From: an uncultured Gammaproteobacteria bacterium
Lineage (GTDB): Bacteria > Patescibacteriota > Patescibacteriia > Patescibacteriales > WJLG01
DNA length: 29,596 nucleotides
Reading direction: 5' to 3'
NCBI GenBank assembly: GCA_964486475.1
Contig: CAZALZ010000013.1
Coordinates: forward strand, 1-29,596
How positions within the stretch are numbered: the stretch's first letter is position 1; every line of letters starts with the position of its first letter. The notes under the pieces are model-generated. The model had not been told where the DNA came from. It did not search any database and worked only from the letters and a program-made list of their open reading frames with translations. The position numbers and the translations under genes are program-made. Positions 8,476 to 24,090 of this stretch are shown piece after piece.

Positions 8476-8796
8476 TTATATTTTTATTTTTTTGCTCCAA
8501 TCGTTAATATAGGGGACTTCCCAGTATTCGCCGGCCAAGACTTTTAATATTCCTATGACCGAAACGATCAAAACAGCCAATCCAATTATTTGTCCAAAAA
8601 AAGGGAACCAGGAAACAAGACTTATAATAAAAAGCACCAATCCTTGTTTGGCGTGGAATTGGCAGAATTTGGAATCTTTTTTTGTTAAAAGCGGAATCAG
8701 AAACAATATCCAAACATAAGAAAGAGCGGCGGAGTGTTTGTTGTTTTCCGCGTCTTTTTTTTCCATAGCAGATAAAACTTTTTTTTCTCTGGGCAT
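8476..8796 (-). CDS. small membrane protein, DUF4870-like
   Basis: MPREKK...AALSYVWILFLIPLL...FHAKQGLVLFIISLV... has two or three TM segments and the HAKQ motif typical of that family. Start moved to ATG 8796 because the track start (8880) overlaps tRNA-Leu. Confidence 0.6.
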   Translation of the reverse strand: MPREKKVLSAMEKKDAENNKHSAALSYVWILFLIPLLTKKDSKFCQFHAKQGLVLFIISLVSWFPFFGQIIGLAVLIVSVIGILKVLAGEYWEVPYINDWSKKIKI

Positions 8797-8811
8797 AGAA
8801 TTGATTTTTAG

Positions 8812-8840
8812 TTGATTATTTGTTATCTTTATATTACTAT
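8812..8840 (+). promoter_or_regulatory. candidate promoter for tRNA-Leu (TTGATT-17 nt-TACTAT)
   Basis: The -35 is at 8812-8817 and the -10 at 8835-8840, 10 nt before the tRNA 5' end. Confidence 0.4.
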
Positions 8841-8850
8841 AGCATAAATT

Positions 8851-8932
8851 GCGGACGTGGTGAAATTGGTATACACGCATGCCTTAGGAGCATGTGGGGC
8901 AACCCATGAGAGTTCAAGTCTCTCCGTCCGCA
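8851..8932 (+). tRNA. tRNA-Leu (anticodon UAG), long variable arm
   Basis: Acceptor GCGGACG/CGTCCGC. D arm GTG..CAC. Anticodon stem CATGC/GCATG with loop CTTAGGA gives TAG. Variable arm TGGGGCAACCCATGA. T arm GAGAG-TTCAAGT-CTCTC. Discriminator A; only CC follows, so the CCA is not fully encoded. Confidence 0.9.
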
Positions 8933-8989
8933 CCGTTCCTGAATATAATTTTGTACTATAACAATTTAACTTTTTAGGAGGGATAGATA

Positions 8990-11131: not shown

Positions 11132-11169
11132 ATTGATAAAAAAAGAGTACGATAAAATCAGCAAAAACC

Positions 11170-11198
11170 TTGACATTGTATTACCATTGTAATACATT
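11170..11198 (+). promoter_or_regulatory. TA-operon promoter with overlapping palindromic operator
   Basis: TTGACA at 11170-11175, a 17-nt spacer, TACATT at 11193-11198. A perfect inverted repeat TGTATTAC-catt-GTAATACA (11177-11196) fills the spacer and the -10. Confidence 0.55.
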
Positions 11199-11227
11199 TA
11201 TTATATAACAAATTAAATTAAAAGAAT

Positions 11228-11455
11228 ATGCGCCAGGTATTAAGTTTGTCTTTGCCGGAACAAATAACCAAAGAAATCAAAGCTAATTCCAAAAAAAGAG
11301 GTTTTAGTTCTGTTTCCGGCTATGTGAAGTATCTTTTTGAGCTTGATAAGGATTTGATTTCTGAAAAAGAACTGTTAAATTCCGTCAATGAAGCCAGAGA
11401 AGAATACAAAAGCGGCAAAACCGTTAAAGCTAAATCAATAGCCGATCTTTTATGA
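11228..11455 (+). CDS. type II antitoxin, ribbon-helix-helix/RelB-like (75 aa)
   Basis: Small ORF whose stop overlaps the toxin start by 4 nt (ATGA). The N-terminal beta-strand-like segment VLSLSLPEQITKEIK is typical of RHH antitoxins. Confidence 0.7.
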   Translation: MRQVLSLSLPEQITKEIKANSKKRGFSSVSGYVKYLFELDKDLISEKELLNSVNEAREEYKSGKTVKAKSIADLL

Positions 11456-11724
11456 TAGTAAAGGAAATTCATTATTCCAAAAAATTCGTAAAAGAAATAA
11501 AAAAACTTCCTAAAGAAGTTTTTATTTTGGCCGTAAATAAAGAAGAAATATTTAAAAATAACCCTCTTCACCCTTCTTTGCGTTTGCATGAATTGCACGG
11601 GAAATTTAAAGGAATCTGGTCCATTTCTTTGACGAATAATTATAGAATAATATTCGAACGAATGCCGAATGGCGATATATTATTCATCTCTGTCGGCAAG
11701 CACGATATTTATAAGTATTTATAA
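11452..11724 (+). CDS. type II toxin, RelE/ParE superfamily (90 aa)
   Basis: LHELHGKFKGIWSISLTNNYRIIFERMPNGDILFISVGKHDIY matches the RelE/ParE core pattern (L-G-x-W-S-x-R/L...YRIIY...I-x-I...H-x-x-Y). Confidence 0.75.
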   Translation: MIVKEIHYSKKFVKEIKKLPKEVFILAVNKEEIFKNNPLHPSLRLHELHGKFKGIWSISLTNNYRIIFERMPNGDILFISVGKHDIYKYL

Positions 11725-12156
11725 TTATTGCACAACTGATTTCAAGATAAAGTGGACGATGGAATAAGAGGCGAAGATGACCACCAGTCCGACAACCGCC
11801 CAAGCCAGAATATTGCGGCCTTTTTCGACTTTGCTGTCATTGCCGGCGGCTAGCATCCAAGTGAAGCCGCCGTAGATAAACATAATTAAGGCTAAGGAGC
11901 CGACAATACCCAGAAGGGCGTCAATGATTTTTCCGATTAAGGTCGGGACGTCGGTGACGCCGGCGTTTTCTAAAGGGTTTTTCAAGCTGACGGTGTCGCT
12001 TGAGCCGGAATTAGTAGTATTATCTCCTGATCCGCTTATTGTCGTTCCGTTGCTTCCTGAACCGCTTATAGTTTCAGCCAGTGTTTTATTCACAGAAAAA
12101 AAGCCCACTGACATTAAAATACATATAAAACATATAAAAGCAAATTGTTTGGCCAT
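11725..12156 (-). CDS. secreted T4SS-pilin-like (TrbC/VirB2-like) protein common in CPR genomes
   Basis: Signal peptide MAKQFAFICFICILMSVGFFSVNKTLA and a Ser/Gly/Thr-rich linker. Then NPL...VPTLIGKIIDALLGIVGSLALIMFIYGGFTWMLAAGNDSKVEKGRNILAWAVVGLVVIFASYSIV, two TM helices in the VirB2-like layout. Start set at ATG 12156 (the track start is a TTG). Confidence 0.7.
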   Translation of the reverse strand: MAKQFAFICFICILMSVGFFSVNKTLAETISGSGSNGTTISGSGDNTTNSGSSDTVSLKNPLENAGVTDVPTLIGKIIDALLGIVGSLALIMFIYGGFTWMLAAGNDSKVEKGRNILAWAVVGLVVIFASYSIVHFILKSVVQ

Positions 12157-12203
12157 AAATAAATTAAGATTAATTCTTATAATATTATTATAATATAATA
12201 AAT

Positions 12204-12234
12204 AAAAAAGGGAAAGAAACAAAGTTCCTTTCCC
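12204..12234 (-). terminator. rho-independent terminator ending the SPFH operon
   Basis: On the minus strand: GGGAAAG-gaactttgttt-CTTTCCC followed by TTTTTTATTTATT, about 20 nt after the stop at 12254. Confidence 0.75.
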
Positions 12235-12253
12235 CGAGTAAAGACAGCGAGTG

Positions 12254-12934
12254 TCAGAGATATTTTACATCTACTAATATGCTGTCCAAGCGGTCTTCTA
12301 ACGCGACCAGCTTGAATTTAACTTGTCGCGACGGCTTGTTGCCGTAGGTTGACTGGTCCCAGGCTTTTATGGTATCACCTGAGCTGTAGACGACCAGCAA
12401 TTTTTCTGACACACAGCGGCTTGTGTTTATGTCGTAATTATATTTCCTTCCTTGTTTGAAGTATAACCATTCACTCTCTCTGTGAGGAGAAAGCGAAATA
12501 AAATATTTTCCTTCTTCGAACCCTTTTTCTGGTATAGAAACTTTTTTTACCGCTCCCCCCCCCAAATCTTCTTTTACAGTCGAAAGGGAAAAATTAGGAA
12601 AAAAGATTTTAACGACAATCATTATTGCCGCCATAGCGATAATGATCCCGTCAAGTCTCGCCACCGTTTCCAGCATTATCTTTCCCTTGTAAATCCCAAA
12701 GAAAGCTAACGAAAGGGAACAGCCAAGAATAACCAAGAAAAAACCGTTTTTCAGCACATTGAACCCGACAAGTTGGGATAGAGTCCAAGTTCCTGCGACA
12801 ATCATAATTAAAGTTAAAATTATCGCCAACAACCAATTTCCTTCTTGAAGGACGGAGCGGACTCTTTCTCCATCCCTTTCCATTGGTTGTTCAACTGCTG
12901 TTTCTCCGAAAATTCTGCGATCGCGTATTGCCAT
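12254..12934 (-). CDS. membrane protein (226 aa): three N-terminal TM helices plus an uncharacterised C-terminal soluble domain; SPFH operon partner
   Basis: SD GGAGA 7 nt upstream. TM segments WLLAIILTLIMIVAGTW, FFLVILGCSLSLAFFGIY, GIIIAMAAIMIVVKIFF. The C-terminal roughly 95 aa look beta-rich, with no recognised motif. Contains a G9 tract. Confidence 0.75.
   Translation of the reverse strand: MAIRDRRIFGETAVEQPMERDGERVRSVLQEGNWLLAIILTLIMIVAGTWTLSQLVGFNVLKNGFFLVILGCSLSLAFFGIYKGKIMLETVARLDGIIIAMAAIMIVVKIFFPNFSLSTVKEDLGGGAVKKVSIPEKGFEEGKYFISLSPHRESEWLYFKQGRKYNYDINTSRCVSEKLLVVYSSGDTIKAWDQSTYGNKPSRQVKFKLVALEDRLDSILVDVKYL
12555..12563 (-). repeat. G9 homopolymer (C9 on the plus strand) inside the 226-aa gene
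   Basis: The coding strand reads GAT TTG GGG GGG GGA GCG GTA AAA AAA (DLGGGAVKK). This is the longest G/C run I found in the window, in an AT-rich genome. Confidence 0.9.
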
Positions 12935-12979
12935 AGATATTCTCCTTTTTTGTGGCAGTTAACCGCGATCGAGATCGCG

Positions 12980-14230
12980 TCACTTGCCGGTTGTTGGTTG
13001 TTTTGATTGTTCGCGGTTGCGATAATCTCCTTGGTCTCGCCGATGATATCCGTGACGAAAACCAGTTCCTTGAGCCGCTCCATTGAAAGCATGGTTTGAT
13101 CCGCCTTCGCCCACAATATGGTCGATGTTTGGATTTCCCCATTTTTCCATTTCTTCCAGATGACGTATCGCTCGTTCTCCCTTTATTCCTTTGATATCAA
13201 GCATCGAAACGAGTTCGGCAATTCCCATTGCTTTTTCTTCAATAGCGATTCTTTCGGCCTTTGCCAGCCGTTCATTAGCCGCTCCTTGCCCCTCAGCTCT
13301 TTTTGCGATCGCATTTGCTTCGTGTGCCGCCGCTTCCGATTTTTTGGAAGCTTCCAGAACACTGTTTAAAGCATTCCGTTGGCTTTCCGTAAGAACGAAA
13401 TCGTAAACCTTTACAGTCTGGACTTTAATTCCCAACTTCAGAAGCTCCTCATTTTCAGGGGAAGTGATGAATTGCTCTGATAAATCATTCCCCTTTTTTT
13501 TCATAGCTTCTTCCATTTCTTCCGGAATGACCGCGCGGACAAAAGATTCTAAATAGCGAATCGTCGCTTTTATAGAATCTTCTTGACAGTAGACGGCCCG
13601 ATAGAGACTGTTGACTTTAAAGAATACATCGGCATAAATTGGCACTGAAGCATTTTTAAAGTCAATCAGCACTACTTGTTCAACACCGGCATTGTCTATG
13701 TAGCGGAAAAGATTTTTTCGGCGTTGACCCATAAATCCGAGAACTGTGGTTACCCAACCGAAATACGGAAAGAAGAAATACCATCCGCCCTCGGTTGCAG
13801 TGTAGGTGTAATTACCGAAAAGTTCCACAAGACGATTGTGGTTTTCCGACAGAGGAGTAAACCCCAACCAGAGAGCGTGAAAAACCAACCCGATAAAAAT
13901 AACAACAGCTAAGATTCCCACTGGAAATTTTTCCAACGCTTCAATGTTAGTAAATCCAACCGCCCACTTCAAGAGAAGCGCCGTCATAATTGATATAATA
14001 GCATCAACTCCGAATGAAATCATCCAAAGGTTTTTCGGGAAAAACCTTGGACCTCCCAGATTTTCTTTTTCTCCGTTTCCTTTTTTGGCCATAGCCATAG
14101 AAAGTAATGTTTTTTCTATTTTCATTACTTCTTCGTTTTTGCTTTTGTTTTTTTTCCGACTTGCGAAAAATTTCCCCAAAGAAAAGACAAAAAGAATGGA
14201 AACAACCACAATCGCCACTAACTTTTCCAT
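12980..14230 (-). CDS. SPFH/band-7 (stomatin/prohibitin/flotillin-like) domain membrane protein
   Basis: Three N-terminal TM helices, then an SPFH core (NRLVELFGNYTYTATEGGWYFFFPYFG ... LGIKVQTVKVYDFVLTE). Next comes the characteristic Ala/Glu-rich helix (SEAAAHEANAIAKRAEGQGAANERLAKAERIAIEEKA). Start set at ATG 14230 (SD AAGGAG 5-6 nt upstream); the track start at 14257 is a TTG. Confidence 0.8.
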   Translation of the reverse strand: MEKLVAIVVVSILFVFSLGKFFASRKKNKSKNEEVMKIEKTLLSMAMAKKGNGEKENLGGPRFFPKNLWMISFGVDAIISIMTALLLKWAVGFTNIEALEKFPVGILAVVIFIGLVFHALWLGFTPLSENHNRLVELFGNYTYTATEGGWYFFFPYFGWVTTVLGFMGQRRKNLFRYIDNAGVEQVVLIDFKNASVPIYADVFFKVNSLYRAVYCQEDSIKATIRYLESFVRAVIPEEMEEAMKKKGNDLSEQFITSPENEELLKLGIKVQTVKVYDFVLTESQRNALNSVLEASKKSEAAAHEANAIAKRAEGQGAANERLAKAERIAIEEKAMGIAELVSMLDIKGIKGERAIRHLEEMEKWGNPNIDHIVGEGGSNHAFNGAAQGTGFRHGYHRRDQGDYRNREQSKQPTTGK

Positions 14231-14308
14231 AACAACTCCTTTGTTTTTAATTTTCAAGGTTCTTTTAGTTTCTAAAACGTTAATTTTAGTAGTGTTTTAG
14301 ATATATAA

Positions 14309-14337
14309 ATAATATCATATTTTATAAAAAAAGTCAA
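14309..14337 (-). promoter_or_regulatory. candidate promoter of the SPFH operon (TTGACT-17 nt-TATTAT on the minus strand)
   Basis: The minus strand reads TTGACT (14337-14332), a 17-nt spacer, then TATTAT (14314-14309), about 80 nt upstream of the ATG at 14230. Confidence 0.5.
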
Positions 14338-14387
14338 TATTTATATAGTTATAAAGTTGCTATTTCAGCAGTTGCTAAAGTTAAAAA

Positions 14388-14429
14388 AGAAAAAATAAAA
14401 AGGGCCGGAAAACTTTCATTTTCAGGCCC
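14388..14429 (-). terminator. rho-independent terminator after the 230-aa gene
   Basis: Minus strand: GGGCCTGAAAA-tgaaag-TTTTCCGGCCC (one mismatch) followed by TTTTTATTTTTT. Confidence 0.7.
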
Positions 14430-14438
14430 TTGAGAAGC

Positions 14439-15131
14439 TCACGCAGCTGCTTCTTCTAAAACGACGGCCACTTGAGCCGTGTTTCCCGCCGCTTCAATCC
14501 TTTTTCCCAGCGCAAAGGTCTCTTGGGAAGTTTTTCGCGCATTTTCTCCGTGCGATATTCTTTCCGCCCCAATTTCCAGGAGCCTATTTTTGGCATCCCT
14601 TTTTGCTTCTTCAAGGGATACCATGGCGTTGATTATCACTTTCGCAGTTTTTGAAGCCTCTTGCAGGACATTTCCTGCAGCTCTGATTTGCGGAACGACA
14701 TCAACGAGCCTCTCTTCTTTTAGCCTCTCACTCTCGAAGATTTCAATCAACCTCTCGGAAATTCTCGCGGAAAAAGAGAGATCATCAATTTTTTTTACTT
14801 CTTCGGCATTTAGAGAGGAAACAGCTTCCATTGCTTCTTTAATCTCCCTAATCTCCCTTGCTCTCATTTTGAGGGTTCTTTGTCTCTCGACAATTTCCCT
14901 CGCAATGTTTTTTTGCTCTTCTTCTTTTCGCCTCACTTCTTTTTCTCTTTGATAAATATTTTTAATGCCCGGCAATACGGAACGGAGAAAAAAAACAATT
15001 CCTCCGCTGACAGCAACACTCGCCGCCATGAACAGTCCATACTTGCCACTGAACTCCATTGCCACAACAAAAAGTATGGCTAAAATCACTACTATACCGG
15101 CAATCTTCCCACTCATCTTTAAAAAATTCAT
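14439..15131 (-). CDS. membrane-anchored coiled-coil protein (230 aa), uncharacterised
   Basis: Two N-terminal TM helices (IAGIVVILAILFVVAM, LFMAASVAVSGGIVFFL), then about 170 aa of E/R/K/A-rich heptad-like sequence. No recognised family. Confidence 0.7.
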   Translation of the reverse strand: MNFLKMSGKIAGIVVILAILFVVAMEFSGKYGLFMAASVAVSGGIVFFLRSVLPGIKNIYQREKEVRRKEEEQKNIAREIVERQRTLKMRAREIREIKEAMEAVSSLNAEEVKKIDDLSFSARISERLIEIFESERLKEERLVDVVPQIRAAGNVLQEASKTAKVIINAMVSLEEAKRDAKNRLLEIGAERISHGENARKTSQETFALGKRIEAAGNTAQVAVVLEEAAA

Positions 15132-15302: not shown

Positions 15303-15329
15303 TTAGCACTCTTGACAATAGAGTGCTAA
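15303..15329 (+). promoter_or_regulatory. CIRCE operator (HrcA binding site), perfect match to consensus
   Basis: TTAGCACTC-TTGACAATA-GAGTGCTAA equals the consensus TTAGCACTC-N9-GAGTGCTAA. It ends 18 nt before the hrcA ATG. Confidence 0.92.
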
Positions 15330-15347
15330 TTGAGATATTATGGTGTT

Positions 15348-22584: not shown

Positions 22585-24090
22585 ATGAGTAATAAAGTTT
22601 TATTGATAATTTGCGACGGTTTGGGATATAGCGAAAATATTAAATATAATGCCGTAATGGAGGCCAACACTCCGAATTTGGATGAGTTTTATAAAAAATA
22701 TCCATATGCCCTTTTAGCGGCTTCCGGAGAGGCAATTGGCTTGCCGGAAGGCCAGATGGGGACATCTGAAGCTAATCATTTGGTAATTGGTTCCGGCAGG
22801 GTCGTTTATCAAAATTTAGTTAAAATTAATCGCGCCGTGAAATCTGGAGAATTAAAAAGCAACCCGGCCATAATTGAAGCTTTTAATCATGTTAAAAAAT
22901 ATAATAGCGTTTTGCATATCAAAGGGATTCTCGGTCCGGGCGGAGTTCATGGTCACAGCGATCATATTAAGGGCTTAATAAAGGCCGCTAAAGATTTCGG
23001 AGTAAAAAATATTTTATTGCATCTCTTTACCGACGGCCGTGATACCGCTCCGCGAAGCGCCTTGGAATATATCGCCGATCTGGAAGGATTTTTCGCAGAG
23101 GAGGGTATTGGGAAAATCGCTTCTTTGGGGGGGCGCTATTATGGTATGGATAGAGATAACAACGCGGACCGCACGGAGAAACATTTTAAAATAATGACAG
23201 CGAAGGACGGACCGAAATATCCGAGCGCCAAAAAAGCGATAGAAGAGGCTTATAAAAATAATTTAACTGATGAGTTTATTGAGCCGGCTTTGATAGAAAT
23301 CGGACCCGGTGAATATGGCTGCGTTCAGTCTAATGACGCTGTTATTTTCGCCAACTTCCGCTCCGACCGCGCCAAACAACTGGCTAAGCGTTTTGTTAAC
23401 GGCGGGTTTAAAAATTTACAATATGTCGCGATGACCAAATATGACGACGACCTTGATATTCGCACGGCTTTTCCGCCGGAAGAAATAAGAAATACTTTAA
23501 GCGAGGTTGTTTCTCAAAACGGTTTAAAGCAATTAAAAATCACTGAAACGGAAAAATTTACTCATCTGACTTTTTTCTTTAATGCGCAAAAATATGAAGC
23601 CGAAAGCGGCGAGGAGAGAATTTTGATTGATAGCAATAAAGACGTGAAGACTCATGATGAAAAACCGGAGATGAAAGTTTTTGAAATCGCAGAGGAATTA
23701 GAGAAGGCTTTAGCCGAGAATAAATATGATTTTATCGCCGCCAATTTGGTAAATTGCGATATGGTCGGGCATACGGGGAATTCTTCCGCTATAATCAAGG
23801 CGGTTGAAGCGGTGGATGAAGTTTTGGGAAAAATTTTTAAAGCCGCCCGTTCCGCCGGGTATGAAGTTATTATTACCGCTGATCATGGTAATGCCGAGCA
23901 GATTTTTGATGAGTTTTCCGGCCAAGTCATGACCTCGCATACTTTAAATCCCGTGCCGTTTATTCTTCTTTCTGAAAAATATGAAAAATTAAACAAACCA
24001 GAGGGATTGCTTTCCGATGTGGCGCCGACAATTTTGAAAATAATGGGTTTGCCGGTACCGACTGAGATGACTGGGCGTCCTTTAATTTGA
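22585..24090 (+). CDS. gpmI: 2,3-bisphosphoglycerate-independent phosphoglycerate mutase
   Basis: LIICDGLGYS N-terminus, catalytic-Ser region TSEANHLVIGSGR, GGVHGH, TDGRDT, C-terminal ADHGNAE; 501 aa. Confidence 0.9.
   Translation: MSNKVLLIICDGLGYSENIKYNAVMEANTPNLDEFYKKYPYALLAASGEAIGLPEGQMGTSEANHLVIGSGRVVYQNLVKINRAVKSGELKSNPAIIEAFNHVKKYNSVLHIKGILGPGGVHGHSDHIKGLIKAAKDFGVKNILLHLFTDGRDTAPRSALEYIADLEGFFAEEGIGKIASLGGRYYGMDRDNNADRTEKHFKIMTAKDGPKYPSAKKAIEEAYKNNLTDEFIEPALIEIGPGEYGCVQSNDAVIFANFRSDRAKQLAKRFVNGGFKNLQYVAMTKYDDDLDIRTAFPPEEIRNTLSEVVSQNGLKQLKITETEKFTHLTFFFNAQKYEAESGEERILIDSNKDVKTHDEKPEMKVFEIAEELEKALAENKYDFIAANLVNCDMVGHTGNSSAIIKAVEAVDEVLGKIFKAARSAGYEVIITADHGNAEQIFDEFSGQVMTSHTLNPVPFILLSEKYEKLNKPEGLLSDVAPTILKIMGLPVPTEMTGRPLI

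Follow-up and report, generated by a model that had tools for sequence, protein, structure and literature searches.

The gene at 12254..12934 on the reverse strand of the window (the whole 29.6-kb stretch of DNA that was analysed) carries a run of nine G residues in its coding strand, and this run (G9) is genuine, correctly assembled and in-frame. With a probability of about one half, we regard it as a tract that is specific to this lineage, prone to slippage, and tolerated because the gene is an accessory one, not as an evolved switch. Its interpretation in terms of phase variation, suggested by a sequence-only reading of the same DNA, is plausible and unproven.

Position of the Tract and Effects of Its Length

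The nine C residues at 12555-12563 of the forward strand correspond to G9 on the coding strand of a 226-aa ORF, 12254..12934(-), where they occupy nucleotides 372-380 of the 681 nucleotides of the gene, that is, codons 124-127. The local codons, GAT TTG GGG GGG GGA GCG GTA AAA AAA, encode D-L-G-G-G-A-V-K-K, and hence both the coordinates and the frame (TTG GGG GGG GGA, LGGG) given by the sequence-only reading are exact. The tract is located mid-gene, at 55% of the ORF.

12555..12563, reverse strand: G9 homopolymer (third base of Leu124 TTG, then GGG GGG, then GG of GGA)
12542-12548, coding on the reverse strand (T7 on the forward strand): A7 run (GTA AAA AAA), 6 nt downstream of G9

The same reading had noted an A7 run 5 nt after the tract; the run does exist, but the spacing is 6 nt (AGCGGT). 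A7/T7 runs are common, with 51 runs of exactly seven in the window. According to the count of runs in the 29.6-kb window, G9 is the longest G/C run, as had been claimed, and the G7 previously noted in gpmI (the iPGM gene; 23127-23133) is the sole other G/C run of at least six. The homopolymeric G/C tracts that characterize contingency loci have a length of approximately 7-8 or more and are located in an ORF or a promoter; G9, being intragenic, is of this kind.

In-silico editing of the tract shows that G8 leads to a stop after 128 aa and G10 to a product of 154 aa, the C-terminal beta domain being absent from both, while G6, G9, and G12 keep the reading frame and yield the full-length protein. 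Thus, the expectation that a change of one nucleotide would truncate the protein past its third transmembrane (TM) helix and remove the C-terminal domain holds in silico, and, likewise in silico only, a ±1 repeat change behaves as an ON/OFF change. The combination of G10 and A6 again encodes the full-length protein, with AV replaced by SG, as -1 in the A7 run compensates for +1 in the G-run; the G8 frame encounters a TAA stop ahead of the A7 run, and so the A-run cannot rescue it.

The 226-aa Membrane Protein and Its Linker

12254..12934, reverse strand: ORF of 226 aa, the tract-bearing gene; its product belongs to a rare family of Patescibacteria, in which three TM helices are followed by a disordered linker and, at the C-terminus, a beta-sandwich domain
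12602..12835, reverse strand: three predicted TM helices (residues 34-56, 64-82, 88-111), AlphaFold model
12533..12589, reverse strand: low-confidence linker (residues 116-134, pLDDT < 50 in the model), of varying length and sequence among homologs
12257..12520, reverse strand: C-terminal beta domain (residues 139-226), according to the model and the P0008 alignment

The AlphaFold model was obtained from a 10-sequence alignment and has the mean pLDDT of 65. In the beta domain, whose strands begin at residue 142, pLDDT is mostly about 75-84, with two 10-residue blocks at 59-65. Codons 124-127, containing G9, fall in the middle of the linker, between the helix 88-111 and the beta domain and in the segment with pLDDT < 50, in agreement with the previously proposed location of the tract at the junction of the TM and soluble parts. 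The distribution of Lys and Arg (six in the N-terminal tail, one in the loop 57-63, and three in the loop 83-95) suggests, via the positive-inside rule, an N-in/C-out topology, with the beta domain outside the cell.

No significant Pfam or NCBIfam match was found for the protein, and the fold matches of the beta domain are weak, to cupin/GOLD-like jelly rolls. We considered and rejected its identity as NfeD: there is no match to the Pfam NfeD family (PF01957) at E ≤ 0.1, and the folds are weak cupin/GOLD-like ones, not OB.

When 1.84 billion representatives were searched exhaustively with HMMER, nine hits were obtained at E ≤ 0.001. The best homolog, P0008, is 52% identical and is ended by a contig edge; six further homologs of 215-244 aa are 24-39% identical to the studied protein, and one family member carries the label “Patescibacteria group bacterium.” The protein is a member of a rare, Patescibacteria-specific family. 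The alignment with P0008 continues through the C-terminal domain, which aligns across the family, and the linkers differ: P0008 has NTCGKKAEVTTPATT in place of EDLGGGAVKK, and among the homologs the linker length differs by many residues, with no sequence in common. No G/C run of at least six is present in the homologous gene of the relatives (at most 52% identical), and the sole G/C run of at least five, which is the G5 of L009/L010, is located away from the linker, at codon 83. The sequence-only reading had suggested a comparison of the tract in close relatives, with its replacement by interrupted GGN codons and a lack of frameshifted alleles speaking against a switch. LGGG is replaced by unrelated linker residues, which points mildly toward refutation, but relatives of at most 52% identity are too distant to be called close.

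Gene Neighbourhood and a Conserved Cassette

12980..14257, reverse strand: SPFH/Band_7 membrane protein gene, 425 aa from a TTG start, 45 nt upstream of the start codon of the tract-bearing gene
11725..12156, reverse strand: VirB2-like T4SS pilin gene, 143 aa from ATG, downstream of the tract-bearing gene; the third cassette member
14309..14337, reverse strand: promoter-like site preceding the SPFH gene (TTGACT and TATTAT with a 17-nt spacing and TG); consensus match only
12209..12235, reverse strand: terminator-like hairpin followed by a T-run, 19 nt past the stop of the tract-bearing gene; 12 pairs, -18 kcal/mol, z = -5.2

The product of the upstream gene matches PF01145 at residues 138-316 (25.4 bits against the cut-off of 23.6) and is homologous to the Band_7-annotated neighbours in the relatives. 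Together with adjacency in L006, L007, L008, L009, and L010, this confirms that the tract-bearing gene is a conserved neighbour of an SPFH gene, as had been assumed. For the SPFH protein as a candidate component of a defence system, there is one weak PADLOC match (PDC-S72, E = 5e-4).

Because a promoter-like site precedes the SPFH gene and a terminator-like hairpin follows the tract-bearing gene, the two genes are suggested to form a bicistronic unit and may be co-transcribed, whereas the hairpin between the tract-bearing and pilin genes suggests that the pilin gene is transcribed apart from this unit. The pilin matches PF18895 (49.1 bits against the cut-off of 26.6) and also, under the cut-off of that model, NF045849, a pilin-like conjugal transfer protein (E = 3e-7). 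VirB2-like pilins are widespread in Patescibacteria (PMC12102498).

The order of genes, SPFH, then a member of the studied family, then the T4SS pilin, is found again in four further gene sets of Patescibacteria that are distant from one another (L006, L007, L008, and L009/L010), with all three components homologous across the loci according to pairwise phmmer comparisons; in the P0008 contig, the part of the cassette from the studied family to the pilin is seen. The literature search found no description of a cassette consisting of an SPFH protein, a 3-TM protein with a beta domain, and a VirB2-like pilin.

Cassette in the window: 11725-14257, reverse strand
Cassette in L006: 3730-6340
Cassette in L007: 437-2843
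Cassette in L008: 558-3365
Cassette in L009: 4946-7194

In L006, an SLT (VirB1-like) gene is located upstream, and the cassette adjoins hrcA-grpE, as it does in the window. The rest of the window is housekeeping (alaS, pgi, tsaD, ppdK, tyrS, hrcA-grpE-hsp20-dnaK-dnaJ, gpmI, and tRNA synthetase genes). Directly upstream of hrcA (start at 15330), a perfect inverted repeat, TTAGCACTC-N9-GAGTGCTAA, is located at 15303-15329 and overlaps a promoter-like TTGACA; we take it to be a match to the CIRCE operator consensus, and it was also picked up as a hairpin in the scan for terminators. Elsewhere in the window, the listed ORF 8476..8880(-) shares its 5′ end with tRNA-Leu(TAG), located at 8851-8934; the counterpart of this ORF in the relatives is a shorter, 106-aa protein of the MamF_MmsF family, and hence the true start codon of the ORF is probably further downstream.

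A Strain-Variable Island

Close relatives were collected via the TyrRS cluster at ≥90% identity (loci L002-L005). In all of them, tyrS is retained, as is the pilin gene over its 3′ half, and both the tract-bearing and SPFH genes are missing; in the nearest ones, e.g., L002 (GCA_030154545.1), tyrS is about 89% identical at the DNA level. The nearest relatives have a Fic gene instead of a toxin–antitoxin pair, and unrelated ORFs instead of the SPFH, tract-bearing, and 230-aa genes. As a close relative, L002, is devoid of both genes at the syntenic site, the module formed by them is dispensable and strain-variable. Judging from this comparison of gene content, the SPFH gene and its partner are part of a strain-variable island.

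The island is bounded by tyrS and hrcA, at 11141-15131 in the window and 11291-17049 in L002. Of the island, the 3′ half of the pilin gene alone is conserved in the relatives, with about 81% identity. The toxin–antitoxin pair of the window is at 11228-11724, the toxin being YafQ/RelE-like and its gene having a 4-nt overlap with the antitoxin gene. A 388-aa ORF found in the relatives at the position of the tract-bearing gene was considered as its possible counterpart and rejected, with no homology detected (hhalign probability 3.4%).

Is the Tract Expected by Chance?

G9 is a genuine outlier for this window, the degree depending on the null chosen. Under a first-order Markov model, 0.10 G/C runs of at least nine are expected per window. 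When synonymous codons are shuffled across the 28 genes, one or more such runs appear with P = 0.034, a value to be read bearing in mind that G9 was picked post hoc, as the longest run of the window; for G/C runs of at least eight in the same genes, P = 0.13. The codon-shuffle null corresponds to a chance frequency of roughly one tract of this kind in each Mb of genome. The deviation is far stronger when G9 is compared with the run-length decay of the window itself: the numbers of G/C runs of lengths from two to nine are 2159, 276, 47, 6, 0, 1, 0, and 1, with a decay of about 0.14 per base, and extrapolation yields approximately 0.003 expected runs of at least nine. In the window together with the related loci (85 kb in total), there is one G/C run of at least eight.

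Codon usage shows the same tendency. GGG is the rarest Gly codon (12% of Gly codons), and the tract uses it twice running, while 47 of the 63 Gly–Gly pairs in the coding regions of the window open with GGC, which breaks G-runs. All the other listed runs of at least three Gly in the window and the related loci (18 out of 18, a few of them duplicated across loci) have interrupted codons, the longest G-run being five. The window has no G/C run of exactly six or exactly eight. This codon choice and the absence of G6 and G8 suggest a general avoidance of G-runs in the window, against which G9 stands out.

For long runs of any base, the genes differ. In the 25 other genes of the window that were scored, mostly housekeeping, five runs of at least eight were observed vs. 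14.7 expected by shuffling (P < 0.0005), and in the module formed by the 230-aa (cc230), SPFH, and tract-bearing genes, five vs. 2.9 expected. Hence, long runs are strongly avoided in the former and are not avoided in the latter. Five out of ten intragenic runs of at least eight in the window are inside this 2.65-kb module; further A/T runs of eight upstream of the tract-bearing gene are at 13494-13501 and 14148-14155 in the SPFH gene (both A8 on the coding strand) and at 14789-14796 and 14988-14995 in the 230-aa gene. The non-avoidance fits relaxed constraint on an accessory module and selection for mutability equally well.

Search for Variant Alleles

A word-index search of 5.8 billion protein clusters retrieved the protein itself only and no truncated allele. 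The exact look-up yielded one further contig, from the Logan assembly of run SRR8925806, produced by a different assembler and equal to the window over 2936 bp, with identical G9; the NCBI and Logan contigs may stem from the same run, and thus their agreement is not fully independent. The run belongs to a study of full-scale anaerobic digesters with public reads (PRJNA533495; Illumina HiSeq X10, 2 × 150). No matches were obtained when GTDB representative genomes were scanned with the SPFH protein, when JGI metagenomes were scanned with the alignment of the studied protein and P0008, or when JGI metagenome and GTDB genome contigs were searched for the DNA flanking the tract on both sides, with a gap of 7-13 nt allowed in between. 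Overall, the collections searched contained no conspecific genome and no frameshifted allele.

Interpretation of the Tract

Given the similarity of G9 to the tracts of Campylobacter jejuni, it is very probably a hot spot of slipped-strand mispairing, the likely elevated rate being judged by analogy with G9 tracts in other bacteria. In C. jejuni, slippage of G9 has been measured at about 2e-4 (to G8) and about 1e-3 (to G10) per division (PMC3401435). If comparable processes operate here, anchor-only variants of 128 or 154 aa are expected to appear, and to revert, at rates far above those of ordinary mutants. Within the favoured explanation, that of a tolerated tract, it may have arisen neutrally by codon drift and slippage, e.g., from G6 to G9, in what would be the least constrained part of an accessory gene, where in-frame changes of length would merely add or remove a glycine.

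Several observations speak for such a tolerated tract. It is identical in two assemblies and in frame; it lies in a segment with low model confidence that varies among homologs, and G6 and G12 keep the frame; no homolog has a G/C run of at least six, and G9 is the only one of at least eight in 85 kb; the module is dispensable; the codon shuffle predicts that a tract of this kind occurs by chance about once per Mb, and long runs are not avoided in the module. Selected SSRs have been reported to concentrate near N-termini (PMC3315296), and therefore the mid-gene position is counted on the same side. Against it are the expectation of about 0.003 derived from the run-length decay, two consecutive GGG codons where all 18 other runs of at least three Gly are interrupted, and the gap at G6 and G8 followed by a coding-strand G9, as described for C. 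jejuni contingency tracts; the gene class is also typical of contingency loci, the product being a membrane protein one domain of which is likely exposed, and the gene being located beside that of a pilin in a strain-variable island.

The closest competitor, which we consider possible and less probable than a tolerated tract, is an evolved contingency locus, in which slipped-strand mispairing in G9 would switch the gene between the full-length (ON: G9, G6, G12) and anchor-only (OFF: G8, G10) states. In this way, a pilin-associated SPFH module would vary the display of its exposed beta domain, e.g., for evasion of phage or host recognition by an episymbiont, and the A7 run would provide a second route of reversion, G10 with A6 restoring the frame. 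This is consistent with the outlier status of G9 and the double use of the rarest Gly codon; with its placement on the coding strand inside the reading frame and the modal length of the C. jejuni tracts, which are likewise weakly conserved between strains (PMC3401435); with the loss of the whole C-terminal domain upon a ±1-nt change and the possible compensation by A7; with a membrane protein encoded beside a VirB2-like pilin in a region differing between close relatives; and with long runs being not avoided in the three-gene module and avoided elsewhere in the window. On the other hand, no length polymorphism is seen, with G9 in both assemblies and no truncated allele in the 5.8 billion protein clusters; the 29.6-kb window contains a single tract, located mid-gene and chosen post hoc as the longest run; the linker tract is found in no homolog; and the full-text literature search revealed no SSR phase variation in Patescibacteria/CPR that could serve as a precedent in the phylum. 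The stronger claim, that G9 is a true contingency locus and the first SSR phase variation described in Patescibacteria (CPR), switching the exposed beta domain of an undescribed cassette of SPFH, 3-TM, and VirB2-like pilin proteins, is slightly less probable, and we put it forward as tentative.

It is very improbable that the run is an artefact of assembly or sequencing, with the true length differing from nine or the run itself made by error or polishing. Sequencing errors are frequent in homopolymers, whose length MAG consensus calling can also get wrong, and the two contigs possibly share their source run; but G9 keeps the frame open into the C-terminal domain that aligns with P0008 and across the family, which ±1 would break, and two assemblers yielded identical sequence over 2936 bp. 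Moreover, the SRR8925806 study used HiSeq X10, 2 × 150, whose chemistry is four-colour, so the dark-cycle poly-G artefact does not apply; we rejected a poly-G sequencing artefact on the basis of this source and the preserved open frame.

Programmed recoding, i.e., -1 ribosomal frameshifting on G_GGG_GGG or A_AAA_AAA, or transcriptional slippage, leading to a second functional product, is the least credible explanation: both runs formally fit the zero-frame X_XXY_YYZ heptamer, but the alternative frames are short, one ending after two codons and the other after a basic, unconserved tail of 27 codons, runs of this sort are absent from the same position in the homologs, and the A7 run is not special among the 51 A7/T7 runs of this length in the window. 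A programmed -1 frameshift site is expected to have a conserved extended ORF in the alternative frame, and, the frames here being short and unconserved, this candidate was rejected.

If G9 is a true switch, the known range of poly-G contingency loci would come to include the Candidate Phyla Radiation, and a surface module consisting of an SPFH scaffold, a beta-domain membrane protein, and a VirB2-like pilin would be indicated as a target of variable selection in not-yet-culturable episymbiotic bacteria; these ultrasmall episymbionts would then use stochastic surface variation toward hosts or phages. If it is not, G9 is a mutational hot spot of an ordinary kind, found in an accessory gene, and mostly a caution for MAG annotation, since a gene with sites prone to frameshifts can be mistaken for a pseudogene.

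Comparison With Known Systems

The polyG/polyC contingency loci of C. jejuni include cj0031 (G9), cj1139 (G8), and capA (G11); coding-strand G9/G10 tracts dominate there, G6-G8 are rare, and conservation between strains is poor (PMC3401435). The gene studied here resembles these loci in having a coding-strand G9 within an ORF, truncation by ±1 nt, and an envelope protein as its product, as well as in the scarcity of shorter G-runs (G6-G8) around the tract and in the tract being not conserved in relatives. It differs from them in the mid-gene position, in one tract being known in 29.6 kb, and in the single tract length observed, both assemblies having G9.

In the phase-variable, pilus-associated pilC gene of Neisseria, the poly-G tract is located in the signal-peptide region, and OFF variants make no protein. 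Common features are the poly-G in the coding region and the link of the gene to a pilus or pilin locus; in contrast to pilC, the OFF state here would leave an anchor-only fragment, and the pilin is a VirB2-like T4SS one, not a component of a type IV pilus.

Homopolymeric gene inactivation is also known for inlA of Listeria monocytogenes, via a 5′ poly(A) tract (PMC2831843). Both cases feature an intragenic homopolymer, with frameshifts reversibly inactivating a surface protein, which for the gene studied here is predicted; the inlA case has been demonstrated experimentally and by recurrent frameshifted alleles, whereas the present gene is known from the G9 allele alone.

Finally, NfeD (PF01957) is the classical membrane-anchored partner of SPFH proteins. 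Similarly to NfeD, the 226-aa protein is small and membrane-anchored, with TM helices in its N-terminal part and a beta domain in its C-terminal part, and its gene is located beside an SPFH gene, with which it is apparently co-transcribed. In contrast to NfeD, it has no PF01957 match, its weak fold similarity is to cupin/GOLD-like domains and not to OB, its beta domain is likely outside the cell, and its cassette includes a VirB2-like pilin.
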